Source: Flavisolibacter sp.
GTDB lineage: Bacteria; Bacteroidota; Bacteroidia; Chitinophagales; Chitinophagaceae
Assembly: GCA_035554655.1 (NCBI GenBank)
Contig: DATMIF010000004.1
Span: 8,922-72,921 of the forward strand
Direction of reading: 5' to 3'
DNA length: 64,000 bases
Below the pieces are notes generated by a model. That model saw nothing but the letters and a program-made list of their open reading frames with translations, was not told the DNA's origin and did not search any database. Position numbers and translations under genes: made by a program. Below are positions 46,239 to 62,910 of the stretch, piece by piece. Position 1 is the stretch's first letter, and every line of letters starts with the position of its first letter.

Positions 46239-47438
46239 ATGGTAGGAACACTCAAAAAATTTTCGATCTTTTCTTTAACTGTTATGGCGATAACAAGCTT
46301 GACTCCTTTGATTTCGCTTGCACAACAAAAAGATTCAAAGTCAACTTCCGCAAATAAAAAAGAAAAAACACTAAAAGAAGTTTACAAAGATGCATTCCTG
46401 GTGGGTGTAGCCGTTAATCCTTCAATTACCTCCGGTGCGGACAAACCCTCCCAGAATATTGTACTCAAACATTTCAACGCCATTACTGTTGAAAATGTAA
46501 TGAAGGCAGCATTGATCAACCCTCAACCCGGTGTTTACAACTGGGGACCTGCGGATGATTATGTGGCCTTTGGTGAAAAAAATAAAATGTTTATTGTAGG
46601 TCACACACTTGTTTGGCATAACCAGGTTCCTGCGTGGTTCTTTACCAATGCAGAAGGAAAGCCAAACACAAAAGAAGAACAGATTGAGCGATTGCGAAGC
46701 CACATACAGACTGTCGCCAGGAGATATGTTGGCCGCGTAAACGCCTGGGATGTGGTGAATGAAGTGATGGGTGAAGACGGAAATTATCGCTCTACAAGTT
46801 GGGTCAACGCCGTTGGTAATGGCGATACGTTAGTAAAGTATGCTTTCAAATTTGCTGTCCAATATGCGCCGAATACAGAATTATACTACAACGATTTCAA
46901 TGCATGGCGTCCGTCGAAAAGGGATGGTATTGTCCGCATGATAAAAATGCTGCAAAAAGAAGGGATACGCATTGATGGTATTGGTATGCAGGGACACTGG
47001 GGATTAAACTATCCAAAAACAAAATACATTGAAGACGCCATTGATGCTTATGCTGCATGTGGTGTAAAAGTGATGATCACTGAACTGGACGTAGATGTTC
47101 TTCCTCTGACGAAAGAAGGACAGATCATCGGGCAGGGCATGGCGGACAAACAATTTCAGTTAGTAGAATTCAAAACGTTTCTAGATCCATATCAAAAAGG
47201 TTTGCCCGATAGCATGCAAAAACTGCTAGCCCTCCGTTACGCTGAGCTATTTTCGATTTTTTATAAGAGGAGGGACAAAATCGCAAGAGTAACGTTGTGG
47301 GGTGTGCATGACGGAATGAATTGGAAGAACGATTATCCCGTTCCGGGTAGAACAAATTATCCCTTATTGTGGGATAGGCAACACAGACCTAAACCTGCTT
47401 TTTATGCTGTACTGAACGTGCCTTCTCAATCTAAATAG
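46239..47438 (+). CDS. GH10 endo-1,4-beta-xylanase
   Basis: WDVVNEV (acid/base Glu) and ITELDV (nucleophile Glu) motifs are present. Signal peptide present. A candidate -7 box TAGCTTTG lies at 46200-46207. Confidence 0.9.
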   Translation: MVGTLKKFSIFSLTVMAITSLTPLISLAQQKDSKSTSANKKEKTLKEVYKDAFLVGVAVNPSITSGADKPSQNIVLKHFNAITVENVMKAALINPQPGVYNWGPADDYVAFGEKNKMFIVGHTLVWHNQVPAWFFTNAEGKPNTKEEQIERLRSHIQTVARRYVGRVNAWDVVNEVMGEDGNYRSTSWVNAVGNGDTLVKYAFKFAVQYAPNTELYYNDFNAWRPSKRDGIVRMIKMLQKEGIRIDGIGMQGHWGLNYPKTKYIEDAIDAYAACGVKVMITELDVDVLPLTKEGQIIGQGMADKQFQLVEFKTFLDPYQKGLPDSMQKLLALRYAELFSIFYKRRDKIARVTLWGVHDGMNWKNDYPVPGRTNYPLLWDRQHRPKPAFYAVLNVPSQSK

Positions 47439-47719: not shown

Positions 47720-48526
47720 ATGGCAAATGCCTATTCCGGGCATATGACGGCAAATCACCGACGGGAAAAAATTCTCGAACTGATCAAAGAGGATGGATCG
47801 GCAAAGGTGGTTGAGCTTGCAAAAATCTTTAAGGTTACTGAACCAACTATTCGCCAGGACCTGGAAAAATTAGAAAAAGATGAACTCGTTATCCGTGAGC
47901 ATGGCGGTGCGTATTTGAAGAACGTTGACATGAATGTGCGTTCCGTATCCTTAGCCCACCAAGAGCATTTAGATAAAAAAGAAATCATTGCCAGGAAATG
48001 CCTGGAGTTTCTCGAACCCGGTGATACCATCATCTTGGACTCCGGTTCAACAACTACAGAAATAGCAAAAAAACTTAAAGGCTTTAAGCAACTAACGGTC
48101 ATCACCAATGCCTTAAATATTGCATTAATGCTTGGTGCCGAACCAGGCATTGAAGTCCTTGTTACAGGGGGTGAGTTTAAACCACCAACGTTATCGTTAA
48201 CCGGACAAAAAGCAGCAGATTTTTTTAGTGGCATTAATGCACAAAAATTGTTTTTAGCAACTGCGGGCATTTCACTAAAGTCGGGTTTAACCTATCCAAG
48301 CATAAGTGATCTTGTTGTAAAGAAAGCAATGATCGATGCCTCGGAAGTTACCTATCTCGTTGCCGACTCAACCAAAATTGGTAAAAGCGCCTTTGCGAGC
48401 CTCGGAGCTTTATCCCTCATCAATTATATCATTACCGATGAAGGGATAGAGGACAAACACAAGGAAATTTTTCTCGATAACGAAATTGAATTGATCATAG
48501 CAACCGAAAAAAATGGAAGTAAATAA
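47720..48526 (+). CDS. DeoR/GlpR-family transcriptional regulator
   Basis: The N-terminal HTH (REKILELIKEDGSAKVVELAKIFKVTEPTIRQDLEKL) and a DeoR C-terminal sugar-phosphate sensor domain are present. An alternative start lies at 47744. Confidence 0.9.
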   Translation: MANAYSGHMTANHRREKILELIKEDGSAKVVELAKIFKVTEPTIRQDLEKLEKDELVIREHGGAYLKNVDMNVRSVSLAHQEHLDKKEIIARKCLEFLEPGDTIILDSGSTTTEIAKKLKGFKQLTVITNALNIALMLGAEPGIEVLVTGGEFKPPTLSLTGQKAADFFSGINAQKLFLATAGISLKSGLTYPSISDLVVKKAMIDASEVTYLVADSTKIGKSAFASLGALSLINYIITDEGIEDKHKEIFLDNEIELIIATEKNGSK

Positions 48527-49940
48527 TAAATCAGTTGTAAGTATAGGTGTCATTATTGGCAACAGGGATTTTTTCCCTGACAAATTAGTGGGCGAATGCC
48601 GTGCAGATCTGTTAGATGCATTTAAGAAGGCAGGCATAAAACCAATCATGCTGGACGAGAATGAAACCAAATTAGGAGGTGTTGAAACCTTCCAGGAAGC
48701 ACAAAAATGTGCGGCATTATTTAAAAAGCATGCAGACGAAATCATTGGTGTTTTGGTAGTGTTACCAAATTTCGGGGATGAGAAAGGAGTAGCAGAGACA
48801 TTGAAGCTTGCAGGTTTGAATGTTCCTGTTTTGGTGCAGGCTTATCCTGACGATCTAAATAAATTAGATGTCGCAAGACGGAGAGATGCCTGGTGTGGCA
48901 AGATATCCGTTTGCAATAACCTTTACCAATACGGAATTAAATTTTCTCTAACAACAAAGCATGTTGTTCATCCCTCCGACGAAAGCTTTGCACAGGATTT
49001 AAAAGATTTTATTGCTGTTTGCAGGGTGGTAAAAGGTTTAAGAAATGTAAGAATCGGAGCGGTAGGAGCAAGACCCGGAGCGTTTAACACGGTTCGCTAC
49101 AGTGAAAAAATATTGCAGCGCAATGGAATTTCCGTTGTTACGATTGATCTTTCTCACATTCTTGGTGCCGCAGACAAGCTTACTAAAAATGATAGCAGCG
49201 TCAAAGAAAGGCTCGATGCGATCAGGGCATATTCTCCAACAGGAAGAACACCTGAGGACAAGCTGGTTCAAATAGCAAAACTGGATGTCGTGCTTCACGA
49301 TTTTATGCAGGAGCATGCTCTTGACGCAACAGCAATCCAATGCTGGACATCGCTTCAGCAGAATTATGGATGTAACGTTTGCACTAGCATGAGCATGATG
49401 AGTGAAAACATGTTGCCTAGCGCATGTGAAGTAGATGTAACCGGAACGCTTACCATGTATGCAATGCAATTAGCATCAGGTTCACCCAGCGCATTAGTTG
49501 ACTGGAATAATAACTATGCAAGTGATGATGAGAAAGTAGTGTTATTCCATTGCGGCAATTGGGCAAAATCATTCCTGCCAGACATCGAAATAAGTACAGC
49601 GCCAATTTTAGGAACTACTGTCGGCGAAGAAAATACTTACGGCGCTTTGGCCGGTCGTACACCTGCTTCACCTCTTACTTATGGAAGAATCAGTACCGAT
49701 GACACCAAAGGAATTATTAAAGCTTATGTAGGTGAAGGTGCTTTAACTGATGATGAATTAAAAACATTCGGAACAAGAGCTGTTGCCAAAATAAGTGATC
49801 TGCAGGGATTGATGAAGTATGTATGCAAAACAGGCTTTGAACATCACGTGGTAATGAACGCTTCAAGAACAGCAGGTATATTAAAGGAGGCTTATGAAAA
49901 CTACATGGGTTGGGAAGTGTATCATCACGGTGGAAATTAG
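48513..49940 (+). CDS. L-fucose/L-arabinose isomerase-family protein (aldose-ketose isomerase, substrate unknown)
   Basis: The size and pattern match FucI/AraA-like family members (IGVIIGNRDFFP, LPNFGDE, RIGAVGARP, FHCGNW). It overlaps the DeoR stop by 14 nt. Confidence 0.75.
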   Translation: MEVNNKSVVSIGVIIGNRDFFPDKLVGECRADLLDAFKKAGIKPIMLDENETKLGGVETFQEAQKCAALFKKHADEIIGVLVVLPNFGDEKGVAETLKLAGLNVPVLVQAYPDDLNKLDVARRRDAWCGKISVCNNLYQYGIKFSLTTKHVVHPSDESFAQDLKDFIAVCRVVKGLRNVRIGAVGARPGAFNTVRYSEKILQRNGISVVTIDLSHILGAADKLTKNDSSVKERLDAIRAYSPTGRTPEDKLVQIAKLDVVLHDFMQEHALDATAIQCWTSLQQNYGCNVCTSMSMMSENMLPSACEVDVTGTLTMYAMQLASGSPSALVDWNNNYASDDEKVVLFHCGNWAKSFLPDIEISTAPILGTTVGEENTYGALAGRTPASPLTYGRISTDDTKGIIKAYVGEGALTDDELKTFGTRAVAKISDLQGLMKYVCKTGFEHHVVMNASRTAGILKEAYENYMGWEVYHHGGN

Positions 49941-49976
49941 TTATGAAATGTTTTTAAGAATCTAATCAGAGAAGAG

Positions 49977-50807
49977 ATGACAGTAAGTGAACTAACAAAG
50001 AAATCCATTGAGTACAGGAAAAATATTCTGAAGTATATTTTCCATGCAAATGCCGGTCATACTGGCGGAAGTCTTTCATGTATTGATATTTTGAATGTGT
50101 TGTATAATCATGTGATGAATGTGAGTCCTGAAAATTTTAAGTCTCCTGATCGCGACAGGTACATTCAAAGCAAAGGGCACAGCGTTGAAGCTTTGTATGT
50201 TGTGTTGGCCGACAAAGGATTTTTTCCCGAATCAGATTTGGAAACACTTTGCAAATACGGCTCACATTACATTGGTCATCCAACAAAAAAAGTAAATGGT
50301 GTGGAACAGAACACCGGTGCACTGGGTCATGGACTTCCTATTTGTGCAGGAACGGCTTTGTCAGCAAAACTGGATAATAAAAGTTTCCGCGTTTTTACAC
50401 TCTTAGGTGATGGCGAATTACCTGAAGGCTCTAACTGGGAGGCTGCACTTACAGCATCGCACTACAAGTTGGATAACTTATGTGCCGTCATTGATAATAA
50501 CAAATTGCAAATAACTGGTCCAACCTCCGAGGTTTGTAATACCGAGCCGATTGACAAAAAATTTGAAAGTTTTGGTTGGTCCGTCAGGCATGTTGATGGG
50601 CATGACTATGATGCACTTATACAAACTTTCGATGCGCTGCCTTTTGAAAAGGGTAAACCAAGTTTAGTTATTGCACATACTACAAAAGGTAAAGGCATTA
50701 GCTATATGGAGAACAACGTTAAGTGGCATCATGGTGTTCCCAATGAAAAACAATTTGAAGAAGCATTGAGTGAATTGGAAAGTGTAACGGTGCCTGACGA
50801 TTTTTAA
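49977..50807 (+). CDS. Transketolase, N-terminal (TPP-binding) subunit
   Basis: GHTGGSLSCIDIL and GDGELPEGSNWEA motifs are present. The split-transketolase architecture is completed by the next gene. Confidence 0.9.
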   Translation: MTVSELTKKSIEYRKNILKYIFHANAGHTGGSLSCIDILNVLYNHVMNVSPENFKSPDRDRYIQSKGHSVEALYVVLADKGFFPESDLETLCKYGSHYIGHPTKKVNGVEQNTGALGHGLPICAGTALSAKLDNKSFRVFTLLGDGELPEGSNWEAALTASHYKLDNLCAVIDNNKLQITGPTSEVCNTEPIDKKFESFGWSVRHVDGHDYDALIQTFDALPFEKGKPSLVIAHTTKGKGISYMENNVKWHHGVPNEKQFEEALSELESVTVPDDF

Positions 50808-50826
50808 AGAGCATAACAAAGGTCAA

Positions 50827-51813
50827 GTGGAAGAAATAATAGAAAACAAGAAGACAGCAAAAGCCAACCTTGAAGTTTTTTCCGAAACACTTCAGCAACT
50901 GGCAAAAGACGATCGCAATATCATTGTTGTGACAAGCGACTCACGTGGTTCCGGTAAGCTTGTGCCCTTCGGACAAAAATTTCCTGCACAGCATATTGAA
51001 GTAGGTATTGCAGAACAAAATCTTGTTGGTGTTGCGGCAGGTCTTGCTTCAACGGGCAAAAAAGTATTTGCTGTATCACCGGCGTGCTTCCTTTCCGCAA
51101 GAGCATTGGAGCAAATAAAAAATGATGTTGCCTATTCTGATAACCCTGTTAAATTAATTGGTATCAGTGCGGGTGTAAGTTATGGAGCATTGGGTTCAAC
51201 GCATCACAGTTTACACGACTTTGCTGTTTTGCGTGCCATCAATAACATAACAATTGTTGCGCCGGCAGATAACTTTGAAACTGAAGAAGTGATTAAAAAA
51301 TCTGCTGCGGCAAATACACCTTTTTACATACGCTTCGGAAAGAAATCAATGCCTTTGCTAAGCGAACAAAATCATGAATTTGAATTTGGCAAAGGTCGTA
51401 TCATAAAAGAAGGGGATGATATTGCATTGATCGCAACGGGAGAAACTGTTTATCCCGTTTTGCTTGCCGCACAAAAGCTGCAGCAAAAGAATATTCATGC
51501 AACGGTAATTAGCATGCATACGATAAAACCTTTGGACTACGAGTTGATCGGTAAGATCGCATCAAAGGGTTTCCCAATAATTACGGTAGAAGAACATAGT
51601 GTTTTCGGAGGGCTTGGTGAAGCCTGTGCTTCTTTCCTTTTGCAAAATGGTTACAGTAATAAGTTTAAAATAATTGGCATTCCCGACGAATACACTGTTA
51701 CAGGATCGCAGTCGGAAATATTTAATTACTATGGAATTTCCGAAAATGGGATTTCCGAAAAAGCACTGGAATTATTAAACAGGAAAAACTCCAGAATTTT
51801 AGATGAAGATTGA
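50827..51813 (+). CDS. Transketolase, C-terminal (pyrimidine-binding) subunit
   Basis: EVGIAEQNLVGVAAGLA motif present. GTG start at 50827. Adjacent to the N-terminal subunit gene. Confidence 0.9.
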   Translation: MEEIIENKKTAKANLEVFSETLQQLAKDDRNIIVVTSDSRGSGKLVPFGQKFPAQHIEVGIAEQNLVGVAAGLASTGKKVFAVSPACFLSARALEQIKNDVAYSDNPVKLIGISAGVSYGALGSTHHSLHDFAVLRAINNITIVAPADNFETEEVIKKSAAANTPFYIRFGKKSMPLLSEQNHEFEFGKGRIIKEGDDIALIATGETVYPVLLAAQKLQQKNIHATVISMHTIKPLDYELIGKIASKGFPIITVEEHSVFGGLGEACASFLLQNGYSNKFKIIGIPDEYTVTGSQSEIFNYYGISENGISEKALELLNRKNSRILDED

Positions 51814-51847
51814 CAAAGCAAACTCAAAAAGCGAATAGCGATTAATA

Positions 51848-53374
51848 ATGGTCGGGAATAAATCTTACATATTAGCAATTGACCAAGGAACAAGTGGCAC
51901 GAAAACAATTTTGTTTGACGAAGAAGGTAAAGTTGTTGTAAAAGTTACCGAACCATTGAAGACTTATTTTTTGGAAGGCGGTTCTGTTGAACAGGATCCG
52001 GAAGAAATCCATCAGAACGTATTGACGTCGGTTGAACAATGTGTTGAAACATTCAAGTCGAATGGCGGTGACATTGCTGAAATTAAAGCTTGTGGCATTT
52101 CCAATCAAAGAGAAACTTTTGTGATTTGGGATGAAAACGGAAAGCCATTATATAATGCTGTGGTGTGGCAATGCAAACGTTCTATTCAAATTTGCGAACG
52201 TTTAAAAAGCGCTGGACTTGAAGAACAAATAAAAAAGAAAACGGGCTTGATTATCGACCCTTATTTTTCCGGGACGAAATTGATGTGGCTTTGTGAAAAT
52301 GTAAGTAATGTCCGAAACGCAATAGATGCAGGCAAGGCTTATTTCGGAACAATTGATGCATGGCTATTATATAAGCTGACAAGCGGCAAAAGTTATTTTA
52401 CAGATTACACCAATGCATCGAGAACATTGTTCTTTAACCTCCAGGATCTTTCATGGGACAAAGAACTACTTAACGCTTTTGGATTATCTGACATTAATCT
52501 TCCCCAGGCAAAACCATCTTCATATCTATTCGGCGAAACTGATTTCAATGGAATAATCAGCAACAAAATTCCAATCACCGGTATGATTGGTGATTCGCAT
52601 GCTGCAGCTTTTGGAGAAGGCTGTTATTCACTTGGTACTGCTAAAGCAACACTCGGTACAGGTTCATCCATTATAATGAATATCGGTACTGAAGTGAAGT
52701 CATCTCAAAACGGAATGGTAACAACGATTTGCTGGAGCACAGAAAACCGTGTCGACTATGCCTTAGAAGGTGTAATCGTTAGTTGCGGTGCTACCATAGA
52801 ATGGATAAAGAATGAATTGGGTTTGATCAATGATAGCAAAGCCACAGAAGCCATGGCAACTTCTGTTAACGATAACAATGGAGTTTATTTGATTCCTGCA
52901 TTTAGTGGATTGGGTGCACCGCATTGGGATATGAATCGCAAAGCTTCTATCACGGGATTAACATTTGACTGCAATAAAAATCACATCGTTCGTGCTGCTT
53001 TAGAATCCATTCCATATCAAATCAAAGATGTGATTGTTGCAATGGAACAGGATGCAGAAATTGAACTGGAGCAGTTGATGGTTGATGGAGGAATTACGTC
53101 TAACAAATTCGTTCTGCAATTTTTAGCTGATTTGCTGCAACGAACAATTGTAACCATCGGCATACCGGATGTTTCTGCTCTTGGAGCAGCATATATGGCA
53201 GGTTTGAAAATTGGCGTTTATAAGGGCATCGAACATTTAAAAATTTTGAACAGCAATAAAAGTTTTGTATATCCTGCAGATAATACAAAAGTGATTGACT
53301 GGTACGAAGGCTGGAGAGCAAACATTAGAAGCAAGGCTGAAAAATTGTTTATTGAATCTGGATCAGAAAGCTAA
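51848..53374 (+). CDS. FGGY-family kinase, glycerol-kinase-like
   Basis: AIDQGTSGTKTILFDEEG, NQRETFVIWD, GDSHAAAFGEGC and VDGGITSN motifs are present. Confidence 0.85.
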   Translation: MVGNKSYILAIDQGTSGTKTILFDEEGKVVVKVTEPLKTYFLEGGSVEQDPEEIHQNVLTSVEQCVETFKSNGGDIAEIKACGISNQRETFVIWDENGKPLYNAVVWQCKRSIQICERLKSAGLEEQIKKKTGLIIDPYFSGTKLMWLCENVSNVRNAIDAGKAYFGTIDAWLLYKLTSGKSYFTDYTNASRTLFFNLQDLSWDKELLNAFGLSDINLPQAKPSSYLFGETDFNGIISNKIPITGMIGDSHAAAFGEGCYSLGTAKATLGTGSSIIMNIGTEVKSSQNGMVTTICWSTENRVDYALEGVIVSCGATIEWIKNELGLINDSKATEAMATSVNDNNGVYLIPAFSGLGAPHWDMNRKASITGLTFDCNKNHIVRAALESIPYQIKDVIVAMEQDAEIELEQLMVDGGITSNKFVLQFLADLLQRTIVTIGIPDVSALGAAYMAGLKIGVYKGIEHLKILNSNKSFVYPADNTKVIDWYEGWRANIRSKAEKLFIESGSES

Positions 53375-53390: not shown

Positions 53391-54740
53391 TTGTGTGCAT
53401 TGCTTCAATTCGCCGATCATATTATAAGAACCAACATTTACACTGTGATTAAGATCATCTTTCTTTGTTGTGGTTTCTGCTTTTCATTTACACTGATTGC
53501 ACAGAAATCGGTTCCGGTCAAACCTCGCATTCTTATCAGCACCGACATCGGTGGTACGGATCCCGATGACAACCAGTCCATGATTCATTTTCTGATGTAC
53601 TGTAACCTGTTCAACACAGAAGGAGTGATCTCTTCTCCTTCTTATGGCAAAGGAAGCAAGCAAGAAATTTTACGGATGATTGCGTTGTACGAAAAAGATT
53701 TGCCGAAGCTTCAAAAACATGCGAAAGGGTTTCCGTCACCTGATGCCTTGCGTGCCATTACAAAACAAGGCAGGCAGGGAGCAGCTCCACTCAAGGGTTA
53801 CACAACAGCAACCGAAGCTTCCAGTTGGATCATAAAGTGTGCAAGGAAGAAAAGCAGTCAACCGCTTTGGATATTGGTATGGGGCGGACTTGATGATCTT
53901 GCACAGGCATTACACGATGCACCTGACATCGGAAATAAAATAAAAATTTACTGGATTGGTGGTCCCAATAAAAAATGGAGTGCTAATAGCTATGCATACA
54001 TTGTTAAAAACTTTCCGGAGCTGTGGTTTATCGAAGTCAATTCCTCTTATTATGGTTTCTTTTCCACCAATGGAATGCCTGATAGCGTAAAAACAACTTC
54101 TTACTATGACCAATATATCAATAGTGCAGGTAGCATGGGCAAGGACTTTAAGAATTATTATGGTGGTAACGTAAAAATGGGTGACACCCCTTCGCTATTG
54201 TACATGATGGACGGGGATCCCAATAATCCTTTAAAAGAAAGCTGGGGTGGAAGCTTTGAAAAATTCAATCACAGCCCCAGGATCGTTTTTAATCGCAACG
54301 CCACTTTGGCAGATACGGTTACTGTTTGCTCTATAATTGAATTTCATTTCAAAGGACCTTATGTAAATATTGCTGTTGATTCGGCATGTGTTACTATGAG
54401 TATGAAAGCAGGTATTGGTGTGCAAAATTGGGCAGGCTATTACCTGGGAAATGGAAACTATGTTGTGCAATATGCTCCCAAGCAATCTGAAAACCTTTCT
54501 TACAAAATCACGTCATCTATTCCTGGCTTCCAGGAACAGTCCGGGGACTTTGTTGTCGATAATATCTGGCCGGGCAAAAGGAGAGAAACAGATTTCGCTT
54601 TGGGAGCCCACTGGTACACTGACCGCAGTGATTCCAAATTATATGATGGCAAAATACAAGGTGGAATTACTGTAAAAAAATGGCGCAATGAAGCTTTAGA
54701 GGATTGGGCAAAAAGGTGGAGATGGTTACAAACTCCATAA
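53391..54740 (+). CDS. DUF1593 domain protein (nucleoside-hydrolase-like N-domain + Ig-like C-domain), exported or membrane-anchored
   Basis: KPRILISTDIGGTDPDDNQSMIHFLMY is the DUF1593 signature. The start is uncertain: TTG at 53391 or in-frame GTG at 53445. A hydrophobic N-terminal segment is present. Confidence 0.75.
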   Translation: MCALLQFADHIIRTNIYTVIKIIFLCCGFCFSFTLIAQKSVPVKPRILISTDIGGTDPDDNQSMIHFLMYCNLFNTEGVISSPSYGKGSKQEILRMIALYEKDLPKLQKHAKGFPSPDALRAITKQGRQGAAPLKGYTTATEASSWIIKCARKKSSQPLWILVWGGLDDLAQALHDAPDIGNKIKIYWIGGPNKKWSANSYAYIVKNFPELWFIEVNSSYYGFFSTNGMPDSVKTTSYYDQYINSAGSMGKDFKNYYGGNVKMGDTPSLLYMMDGDPNNPLKESWGGSFEKFNHSPRIVFNRNATLADTVTVCSIIEFHFKGPYVNIAVDSACVTMSMKAGIGVQNWAGYYLGNGNYVVQYAPKQSENLSYKITSSIPGFQEQSGDFVVDNIWPGKRRETDFALGAHWYTDRSDSKLYDGKIQGGITVKKWRNEALEDWAKRWRWLQTP

Positions 54741-55150: not shown

Positions 55151-56293
<1,143 letters not shown>

Positions 56294-56356
56294 AAGTTCT
56301 GAATCTAATAATAGCAGAGAGGCAGTCTCCTGTTATTAATTCAGTTCATCGCACTA

Positions 56357-57319
56357 TTGGAAAATTATAGGTTAATTATAAAACAAGCAGATGTGATACG
56401 TGAATTGGTGAACTCACAAAAAGGCAGAACTAAAGCAAGCAAATCATATTTGATGATTTGCTTGTTCTTTTCTTTTATTGCCCATGCACAGGAAATTGTT
56501 GAATTGTACCCAAGTACAGTTCCTAATTCGAAACAAAGTGAAAAAAAGGAAACATTTACTTCAGGAATGTTCCGAGACGTAACAAAGCCAACACTGGAAA
56601 TTTATCTTCCTGAAAAAGAAAAAGCAACAGGTACTGCAGTTATTATTATTCCCGGCGGAAGTTATGCCGTAGTTGTTTACCAGGGAGAAGGTGTTTCAAA
56701 CGCAAAGCAATTTGCAAAGAATGGCATTGCTGCTTTTGTTTTAAAATACAGGTTGCCCGATGATTCCATCATGGTGAATAAAGCCATTGGTCCTTTACAG
56801 GACGCACAGCAAGCTATAAAATACGTTCGTGAAAATGCCGCTAAGTGGGGAGTTGATGTAAACAAGATCGGCATCGTTGGGTTTTCTGCCGGCGGACATT
56901 TAGCTTCCACTGCTGCAACGCATTTTCAAAAACCGCTGATCGAAAATTCAAACAATACAAATCTGCGTCCTGATTTCCAGGTAGTGGTTTACCCGGTAAT
57001 AAGTATGCAGGATAGTTTGACGCACAGCGATTCGAGAAAAAATTTGCTTGGTAAAAATCCATCTAAAGAAACTATCGATCTATACTCAAACGAATTGCAG
57101 GTAACCAACAATACACCGCCTGCCTACATAACACATGCGGCGGACGATAAAGTAGTGGATGTAGACAATAGCGTTAGATATTTTGAAGCGTTAAGACATA
57201 ATAAGATTCCTGTTGAAATGCATATCTATCAAAGCGGAGGACATGGATTTATTTTCCGCCAACCGGATTGGATTGATCCTTTGCTTTTGTGGCTGAAGAA
57301 AAATAAATGGATTAACTAA
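56357..57319 (+). CDS. Alpha/beta hydrolase, acetyl/feruloyl esterase-like (Abhydrolase_3 / BD-FAE type)
   Basis: Motifs IIIPGGSY, GFSAGGHLAS (GxSxG) and HADDKVV are present, plus HIYQSGGHGF. The likely true start is the ATG at 56453, which gives a signal peptide. The ORF-track start is a TTG. Confidence 0.85.
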   Translation: MENYRLIIKQADVIRELVNSQKGRTKASKSYLMICLFFSFIAHAQEIVELYPSTVPNSKQSEKKETFTSGMFRDVTKPTLEIYLPEKEKATGTAVIIIPGGSYAVVVYQGEGVSNAKQFAKNGIAAFVLKYRLPDDSIMVNKAIGPLQDAQQAIKYVRENAAKWGVDVNKIGIVGFSAGGHLASTAATHFQKPLIENSNNTNLRPDFQVVVYPVISMQDSLTHSDSRKNLLGKNPSKETIDLYSNELQVTNNTPPAYITHAADDKVVDVDNSVRYFEALRHNKIPVEMHIYQSGGHGFIFRQPDWIDPLLLWLKKNKWIN

Positions 57320-57397
57320 GGTGCAGGCCTCTCTGTAAATGCTCTTTAATTATAAATATTTCGAACCAAAATTTTAATAAAGAACAACAAGAATAAC

Positions 57398-59652
<2,255 letters not shown>

Positions 59653-59674
59653 CGCAACAAATAAATATTGGAAT

Positions 59675-62910
<3,236 letters not shown>

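Follow-up and report, generated by a model that had tools for sequence, protein, structure and literature searches.

The DNA stretch considered here, 64,000 nucleotides from Flavisolibacter sp. (contig DATMIF010000004.1 of assembly GCA_035554655.1, called the window below), carries at positions 47720-53374 a compact cassette of five genes which, judged by sequence comparison and with a probability of about 0.78, encodes a non-oxidative transketolase route for the catabolism of the branched plant sugar D-apiose. This reading is carried by the motifs that both transketolase halves and the kinase have in common with the E. coli apiose cluster, by the exchange of isomerase types at one position of enterobacterial apiose loci, and by the pectin genes found close to the cassette in its relatives. 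The five genes are the following:

47720-48526, + strand: DeoR-family regulator, 268 amino acids (aa); Pfam HTH_DeoR + DeoRC (PF08220 + PF00455)
48513-49940, + strand: isomerase of the AraA/FucI fold, candidate D-apiose isomerase, 475 aa; Fucose_iso_C (PF02952, E 1e-28)
49977-50807, + strand: AptA-like N-terminal, thiamine diphosphate (ThDP)-binding subunit of transketolase, 276 aa; Pfam Transketolase_N
50827-51813, + strand: AptB-like C-terminal subunit of transketolase, 328 aa, GTG start; Transket_pyr + Transketolase_C
51848-53374, + strand: AplK-like FGGY kinase of the glycerol-kinase-like branch, candidate apulose kinase, 508 aa; FGGY_N + FGGY_C

A preliminary description of this DNA had presented five co-directional, tightly packed genes, and open reading frames together with Pfam bear it out in coordinates, families and the 14-nt overlap of the DeoR and isomerase genes (48513-48526), which is followed by intergenic gaps of 36, 19 and 34 nt. 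Its remark that the proteins lack signal peptides agrees with a hydropathy scan, in which 19-residue windows reach at most 1.46 in all five proteins and 2.34 in the product of the next gene; the hydrophobic N-terminal stretch of the isomerase is, in the structural model, the first β-strand of the fold. No cassette enzyme received an NCBIfam name at the equivalog level. The genome-neighbourhood analysis that had been suggested was performed on the best 80 of 585 related loci, to which all counts out of 80 refer. The isomerase is accompanied by both transketolase halves in 77 of the 80, by the kinase in 69, by the DeoR gene in 57 and by an inserted importer, composed of solute-binding protein (SBP), DUF2291 protein and ATP-binding cassette (ABC) genes, in 58-59; since both transketolase halves keep company with the isomerase so regularly, the arrangement is not due to chance. 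The closest relatives of the isomerase come from Chitinophagaceae and other Bacteroidota.

The N-terminal transketolase subunit is 47% identical to AptA of E. coli SE15 (37% for the other transketolases of this genome) and the C-terminal subunit 41% identical to AptB (30-32% for the paralogues), and the two are the genome's best matches to these proteins. The N-terminal half has GHTG, TGALGHG, EGSNWE and WHHxVP in common with AptA, where housekeeping enzymes show GHP, GQG and WHG, and the C-terminal half reads GALGSTHHS (GPLASTHHA in AptB) at the place of the canonical GEDGP[TS]HQ/GEDGATHQ, GEDG being present in all four canonical comparators. These five features, which were defined in this analysis and are not curated, are missing from the housekeeping transketolases and DXS of the genome; GHTG, TGxLGHG, EGSNWE, WHHxVP and GxLxSTHH recur in 51-55 of 55 enterobacterial aptA loci. 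By these marks the enzyme is a split transketolase of the AptA/AptB type. The aspartate of GEDG, the residue that reads the stereochemistry of the acceptor hydroxyl, is lost in the window, and this loss would fit a donor that leaves dihydroxyacetone phosphate (DHAP) rather than an aldose. The possibility that these subunits are simply the only housekeeping transketolase of the organism is contradicted by the replaced GEDG motif and by two other transketolase systems in the genome, namely a split pair (N-terminal half of 278 aa on contig C30, C-terminal half of 322 aa on C37) and a full-length enzyme of 616 aa; a DXS is encoded as well.

The kinase carries the AplK-type motifs GDSHAA and GTGSS, for which the GlpK of this genome and that of E. 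coli have GDQQAA and GTGCF, and neither GDQQ nor GTGCF was found in any of the 69 related kinases. Overall identity does not discriminate between the two affiliations (38.6% to AplK and 42% to the genome's own GlpK, which is itself 38.8% identical to AplK). The kinase scores 559.5 against the glycerol kinase equivalog TIGR01311, below its cut-off of 590.35, and passes the broader subfamily model NF000756 (572 against 498). The motifs, and the presence of a separate GlpK with GDQQ/GTGCF on contig C43, speak against a bona fide glycerol kinase, which had been named as an alternative. The order of reactions originally proposed, isomerase, kinase and then transketolase, is upheld by the motifs common with AptA, AptB and AplK.

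For the isomerase an AlphaFold2 model was built on a 60-sequence alignment (pLDDT 94.3). It matches L-arabinose isomerases (AraA) with a TM score of 0.83 and a Z score of 34 over ~449 residues at ~13% identity, and L-fucose/D-arabinose isomerases (FucI) with Z ~30, the fold thus being common at 12-14% identity; the matches that come after AraA and FucI in the structure search score Z <9. Residues E306, D330, H346 and H445 are invariant across 125 aligned homologues and are presumably spaced like the metal ligands of AraA and FucI. The three-domain fold, as modelled, and the conserved putative metal ligands place the enzyme in the AraA/FucI structural superfamily. A sequence search of the PDB gave no match, and the canonical FucI domain PF07882 has none in this genome. 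The nearest curated model is that of the sulfoquinovose isomerase SftI (NF048012), yet the enzyme scores 92 bits where 700 are required, and in those recurring neighbours for which an annotation was made no sulfoglycolysis genes were noticed.

The position of this isomerase in the pathway is best seen in enterobacteria. When 301 genomes of one enterobacterial family were searched with E. coli AptA, 55 loci were obtained in 54 genomes, at 76-92% identity, and their entry slot is occupied by a FucI-like gene in 31; in 16 it holds a short-chain dehydrogenase/reductase (SDR) like that of E. coli, 5 have a TIM barrel of PF01261 there, and 3 have no gene in it; no locus carried two types. These counts include kin loci that are not independent, and L207, counted among the 31, and the plasmid locus L087 are one and the same replicon. 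At one chromosomal site, lapB...pgpB-ribA, the TIM barrel (L185, L187 and L194, in the first of which the retrieved sequence does not include the pgpB side) and the FucI-like gene (L191, L203 and L204) occupy the same position between aplK and the regulator, in loci whose AptA is 83-86% and SBP 81-87% identical across both isomerase types. The TIM barrel of the aptA loci matches PDB entry 3KTC at 745 bits, which is presumably the Pectobacterium protein later named ApsI; ApsI itself is presumably a PF01261 TIM barrel, and this match is consistent with it. If that identification holds, the swap is a pattern of non-orthologous displacement, in which the FucI-like gene is a substitute enzyme. The view that a FucI-like entry enzyme represents a variant of the described route is therefore sustained, with PF02952 in place of the TIM barrel. 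In the window genome the sole match to the TIM-barrel type is partial (25-27%) and lies outside the cassette, and none was found in the 80 related loci, so that the window has no isomerase of the ApsI type and its enzyme is of PF02952, with the AraA/FucI fold. Three enterobacterial aptAB-aplK loci, L174, L183 and L190, are without entry enzyme or importer within the fetched stretch.

The window isomerase is 52-55% identical to the FucI-like gene of these enterobacterial aptA loci. In midpoint-rooted trees the window and the enterobacterial apt-linked isomerases fall on one side of a branch, apart from relatives in arabinose operons, with a support of 98 in FastTree (a tree excluding Firmicutes and two unplaced rows) and 95 in IQ-TREE run in quick mode, and 27 diagnostic positions separate apt-linked from ara-linked isomerases. 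The Bacteroidota branch is, in the FastTree tree, well separated from the enterobacterial one.

Further support for apiose comes from the neighbours of the cassette in other genomes. GH140-like genes stand in the flanks of 12 of the 80 loci, as against 1 for GH10 and 0 for GH8, IlvD and FAH each, and 7 loci directly follow a BT1020-like gene for rhamnogalacturonan-II (RG-II) degradation; contig C10 of the window genome bears an RG-II-type locus that includes GH140. Within the family the isomerase is present in 22 of 251 genomes and GH140 in 96, the two lying within 5 kb of each other in 4 of the 22 and within 25 kb in 7 (counted by eye). DUF2291 importers, like those inserted in most related loci, also occur in the E. 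coli apiose cluster and in oxidative apiose clusters of the oiaX type, and one Shinella copy sits in a different cluster. The SBP of Sodalis is ~70% identical to those of oiaX clusters, and the R. etli SBP of an oiaX cluster is identical with PDB entry 5IBQ, the ligand of which is presumably apiose. In a genome of the same genus (G062) a 4.5-kb importer of this kind lies exactly at the site of the 34-nt gap of the window (51814-51847), and the C-terminal transketolase gene is joined directly to the kinase gene in 9 of the 80 loci too. Apiose, the sugar first put forward as a candidate, is thus favoured by the E. coli apiose-cluster motifs, by the slot swap and by the GH140/RG-II linkage in relatives. 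As for the plant-cell-wall context, the part that stood is the vicinity of RG-II pectin genes in relatives; the local xylan locus, described below, is incidental.

What was observed are the gene families, the fold, the motifs, the synteny and the exchange of isomerase types in one slot; from these we infer the substrate, each reaction, uptake and regulation as follows. Apiose would be released from RG-II by the genome's RG-II locus on contig C10, with its GH140 apiosidase, and the free sugar would be taken into the cytoplasm by a carrier. The enzyme of the AraA/FucI fold, with its predicted metal site of E306, D330, H346 and H445, would convert apiose to apulose, the AplK-like kinase would form apulose 4-phosphate, and the AptAB-like transketolase would transfer a C2 unit onto glyceraldehyde 3-phosphate, yielding xylulose 5-phosphate and DHAP, which are reportedly the products of the apiose transketolase route in the 2018 work of Carter and colleagues. 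The DeoR protein would hold the operon off until a pathway phosphate binds. No account of a PF02952 isomerase in apiose catabolism was found in the literature, in a survey whose coverage of subscription papers, the original pathway paper included, was thin. The chances appear about even that the PF02952 branch represents a family of D-apiose isomerases not described before, which arose by convergence and would be the first with the AraA/FucI fold to act on a branched sugar. An equation of the cassette with BVU_0214-0219 was dropped, BVU_0219 being an L-galactose dehydrogenase.

Several findings weigh against apiose, and the first group of them concerns the isomerase. In a sample of the phylum a homologue is present in 23 of 401 genomes, 7 of them at ≥72% identity (this genome included), 8 at 47-51% and 8 at 24-30%. 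Seven of the eight loci at 47-51% adjoin an araD-like gene and six a ribulokinase-like gene, and all six distant (24-30%) loci that were inspected have both; the isomerase family is therefore not apiose-specific, and PF02952, on sequence grounds, probably includes L-arabinose isomerases. Could the window enzyme, then, be a second L-arabinose (or L-fucose) isomerase that serves an arabinoxylan locus, with kinase and transketolase as accessories? Its fold is nearest to AraA, its ~50%-identical relatives stand in arabinose-type operons, and the cassette is flanked by a GH10 gene on one side and by esterase and GH8 genes on the other. This explanation is nevertheless highly improbable, since AraA-like (C53), AraD-like and ribulokinase-like (both C34) genes are already present elsewhere in the genome, PF07882 is missing, the xylan neighbours are not conserved, and both the tree and the 27 diagnostic positions part apt-linked from ara-linked isomerases. 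The C53 and C34 labels derive from comparison with a single reference locus and from a reading of the sequences, and the AraD-like gene matches PF00596. The same results answer the earlier concern that the isomerase might be specific for L-fucose or L-arabinose, with canonical downstream genes elsewhere.

The second group of objections to apiose concerns the substrate. The Bacteroidota SBPs of the relatives are 56-57% identical to a ribose-bound T. maritima protein (2FN8) and 41-46% to the SBPs of oiaX clusters; a DUF2291 importer was not found in this assembly (G000; 65 contigs, marker completeness 100%), and in its own genome the cassette stands apart from the RG-II locus. GH140 is present in 20 of the 22 family genomes that have the isomerase (background 96 of 251), and the control, GH10, is likewise present in 20 of 22 (121 of 251). 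Co-occurrence at the genome level therefore just marks degraders of plant glycans, and physical linkage alone counts; the co-occurrence of GH140 was discarded as support after this control. The window transketolase and kinase are just 36-52% identical to the enterobacterial Apt and Apl proteins, and their motifs are also present in uncharacterised clusters of Rhizobium and Deinococcus, so that they identify a subfamily and do not prove a substrate.

A pentose route of the D-arabinose/D-ribose type, in which D-arabinose would be converted to D-ribulose and D-ribulose 5-phosphate and then handed to a transketolase of relaxed stereospecificity, is improbable. The loss of the GEDG aspartate, the determinant of hydroxyl stereochemistry, makes a non-standard straight-chain donor chemically possible, and the SBP of the relatives is nearest to the ribose-bound protein; the window motifs are, however, those that define the E. 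coli apiose cluster, and both the swap with the ApsI-type TIM barrel and the GH140/RG-II links favour apiose. In a study of T. maritima, TM0951 and TM0952, adjacent to a split tktAB, were predicted to be D-arabinose isomerase and D-ribulose kinase, and the darA-drlK-tktAB operon was induced by ribose and xylose (PMC3750489). These assignments are predictions, however, Table S1 of that study records TM0952 as assayed with glycerol (PMC3750489), and the likeness of the two proteins to the window genes is one of annotation.

A similarly slim chance falls to the same chemistry acting on a different sugar, rare or branched, from pectin or plant glycosides, be it a tetrose or an analogue of apiose, or to a Bacteroidota branch of broad specificity, as this branch stands well apart from the enterobacterial one and its SBP differs. 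In 9 of the 80 loci the cassette adjoins OiaX-like/OiaK-like genes, and GH127 is frequently present with them (7 of 80), which suggests traffic in other branched sugars. No positive evidence was found for any alternative substrate, and GH140-like neighbours recur in Bacteroidota, as do DUF4038 (GH140-like) neighbours in Firmicutes plasmid records. The window genome has a locus of this OiaX-like/OiaK-like kind (C52:3387-7992), with genes for a RuBisCO-like protein, a DUF1537-type kinase, an Asp/Glu racemase-like protein and an SBF transporter, followed by an enolase-superfamily gene; representatives of the OiaX-like and OiaK-like proteins score 487 and 428, each under a cut-off of 700. Such genes may serve the breakdown of a different branched sugar acid, for instance apionate or aceric acid.

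The regulator probably starts at the ATG at 47744 rather than at 47720, because the alignment with the same-genus orthologue begins there, and it is presumed to be a repressor that a pathway sugar phosphate would release. An 8-mer count across 56 upstream regions gave no convincing DeoR operator, and a promoter scan remained at chance level (21 against 20.7). Behind the kinase follows a further gene:

53391-54740, + strand: DUF1593/Sde182 nucleoside-hydrolase-like protein; PF07632, hydrophobic N-terminus

It begins 16 nt past the kinase, is co-directional and may belong to the same unit as a sixth gene, so that the original count of five holds with this possible addition. The family is present in 22 of the 80 related loci (11 inside the cassette, 8 adjacent), and in the same-genus genome G062 the gene following the kinase is not DUF1593. 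The protein has a DPDD motif and is a candidate apiose-releasing enzyme. The cassette appears to be inserted into a xylan locus, which comprises the GH10 gene (46239-47438) before it and, at 55163-62910 after it, four PF00756 esterases in a run, a BD-FAE-like esterase and a GH8 gene.

Relatives of the isomerase were also observed in other settings. In loci L124-L137 (e.g., L126:9115-10527) PF02952 homologues of ~50% and ~28% identity stand in operons with araD, ribulokinase and sodium/solute symporter (SSS) genes, mostly without a recognisable AraA, L133 holding both; these are probably uncharacterised L-arabinose isomerases of the same family. In L130 (9299-10705) and L131, from genomes G032 and G399, the homologue is interrupted by a stop or frameshift. 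In five small-genome Alphaproteobacteria (L076-L080) the isomerase is 70% identical, the transketolase halves are transcribed divergently and the kinase has different motifs (GDAQAS, GTGFN); their cassette may have been acquired by transfer or put to another use. A L. monocytogenes locus (L093:5296-13086) and a L. plantarum plasmid (L150) hold a FucI-like isomerase (distant, ~27%), transketolase gene(s), a β-glucoside phosphotransferase system (PTS) and a DUF4038 (GH140-like) gene, the former additionally a second transketolase half and a kinase, and both clusters probably serve the utilisation of apiosides. The Listeria gene set corresponds to the lmo1031-1036 operon of PMC2996996. In Monoglobus a distant isomerase and transketolase genes occur with a DUF5060 gene.

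The pathway itself is already known, which limits the surprise. If the proposed route is correct, a function would be assigned within a large isomerase family, with at least 8000 candidates scored and mixed substrates, and one step of apiose catabolism would have three unrelated solutions that are exchanged in place. The cassette would also separate those pectin degraders among the Bacteroidota that consume apiose from those that release it (isomerase in 22, GH140 in 96 of 251 family genomes). Most Flavobacteria tested secrete apiose from RG-II, according to a 2026 preprint (10.64898/2026.03.13.711244), and the cassette is therefore a testable marker for such a cross-feeding split. Should the branch be a family of apiose isomerases, PF02952 would provide the most frequent entry enzyme among the enterobacterial loci sampled (31 of 55) and would be the norm in environmental Bacteroidota, T. 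maritima darA-drlK-tktAB would be an apiose or apioside operon, and so would L. monocytogenes lmo1031-1036, with its isomerase, transketolase halves, kinase, PTS and DUF4038 gene.

Among known systems, AraA and FucI resemble the window isomerase in fold (TM 0.83; Z 34 and 30) and in the E-D-H-H set, presumably spaced like their metal ligands, and differ from it in sequence (13% identity), in PF07882, which the window does not have, and in cognate downstream genes, none of which is in the operon. The RbsR operon TM0951-0954 of T. maritima (darA, drlK, tktB, tktA) also combines an isomerase, an FGGY kinase, a split transketolase and an ABC importer (PMC3750489), and the SBP found in relatives of the window cassette shows 56-57% identity with the ribose-binding protein of that operon; the operon's predicted substrate is D-arabinose and its regulator of the LacI type. 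In the E. coli ST131/ST14 apiose cluster (SE15 ECSF_RS02670-02715), the genes of which are named aplK, aptA and aptB, cluster-positive strains are reported to grow on D-apiose, which K-12 does not, and apsI to be replaced by two oxidoreductases, and the term apsI was not found in the supplements (PMC13001218). Window and E. coli cluster share AptA (47%), AptB (41%) and AplK (39%), with the same motifs, and neither has apsI; the proposed substitute is two SDR oxidoreductases in E. coli and a FucI-like isomerase in the window. The D-apiose transketolase pathway of ApsI, AplK and AptA/AptB (MetaCyc PWY-8089), as cited in PMC13001218 and PMC13753588, is similar in the motifs of split transketolase and FGGY kinase, in its aldose-ketose entry step and in the DUF2291 ABC importer of most window relatives. 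Unlike that pathway, the window has an AraA/FucI-fold PF02952 entry enzyme and not a PF01261 TIM barrel, a DeoR protein and not the sugar-binding regulator of the E. coli type, and no importer in the genome, and the identity of its transketolase and kinase is 36-52% only. The cassette thus works like the known pathway and departs from it in the isomerase family and, in this genome, in the importer.

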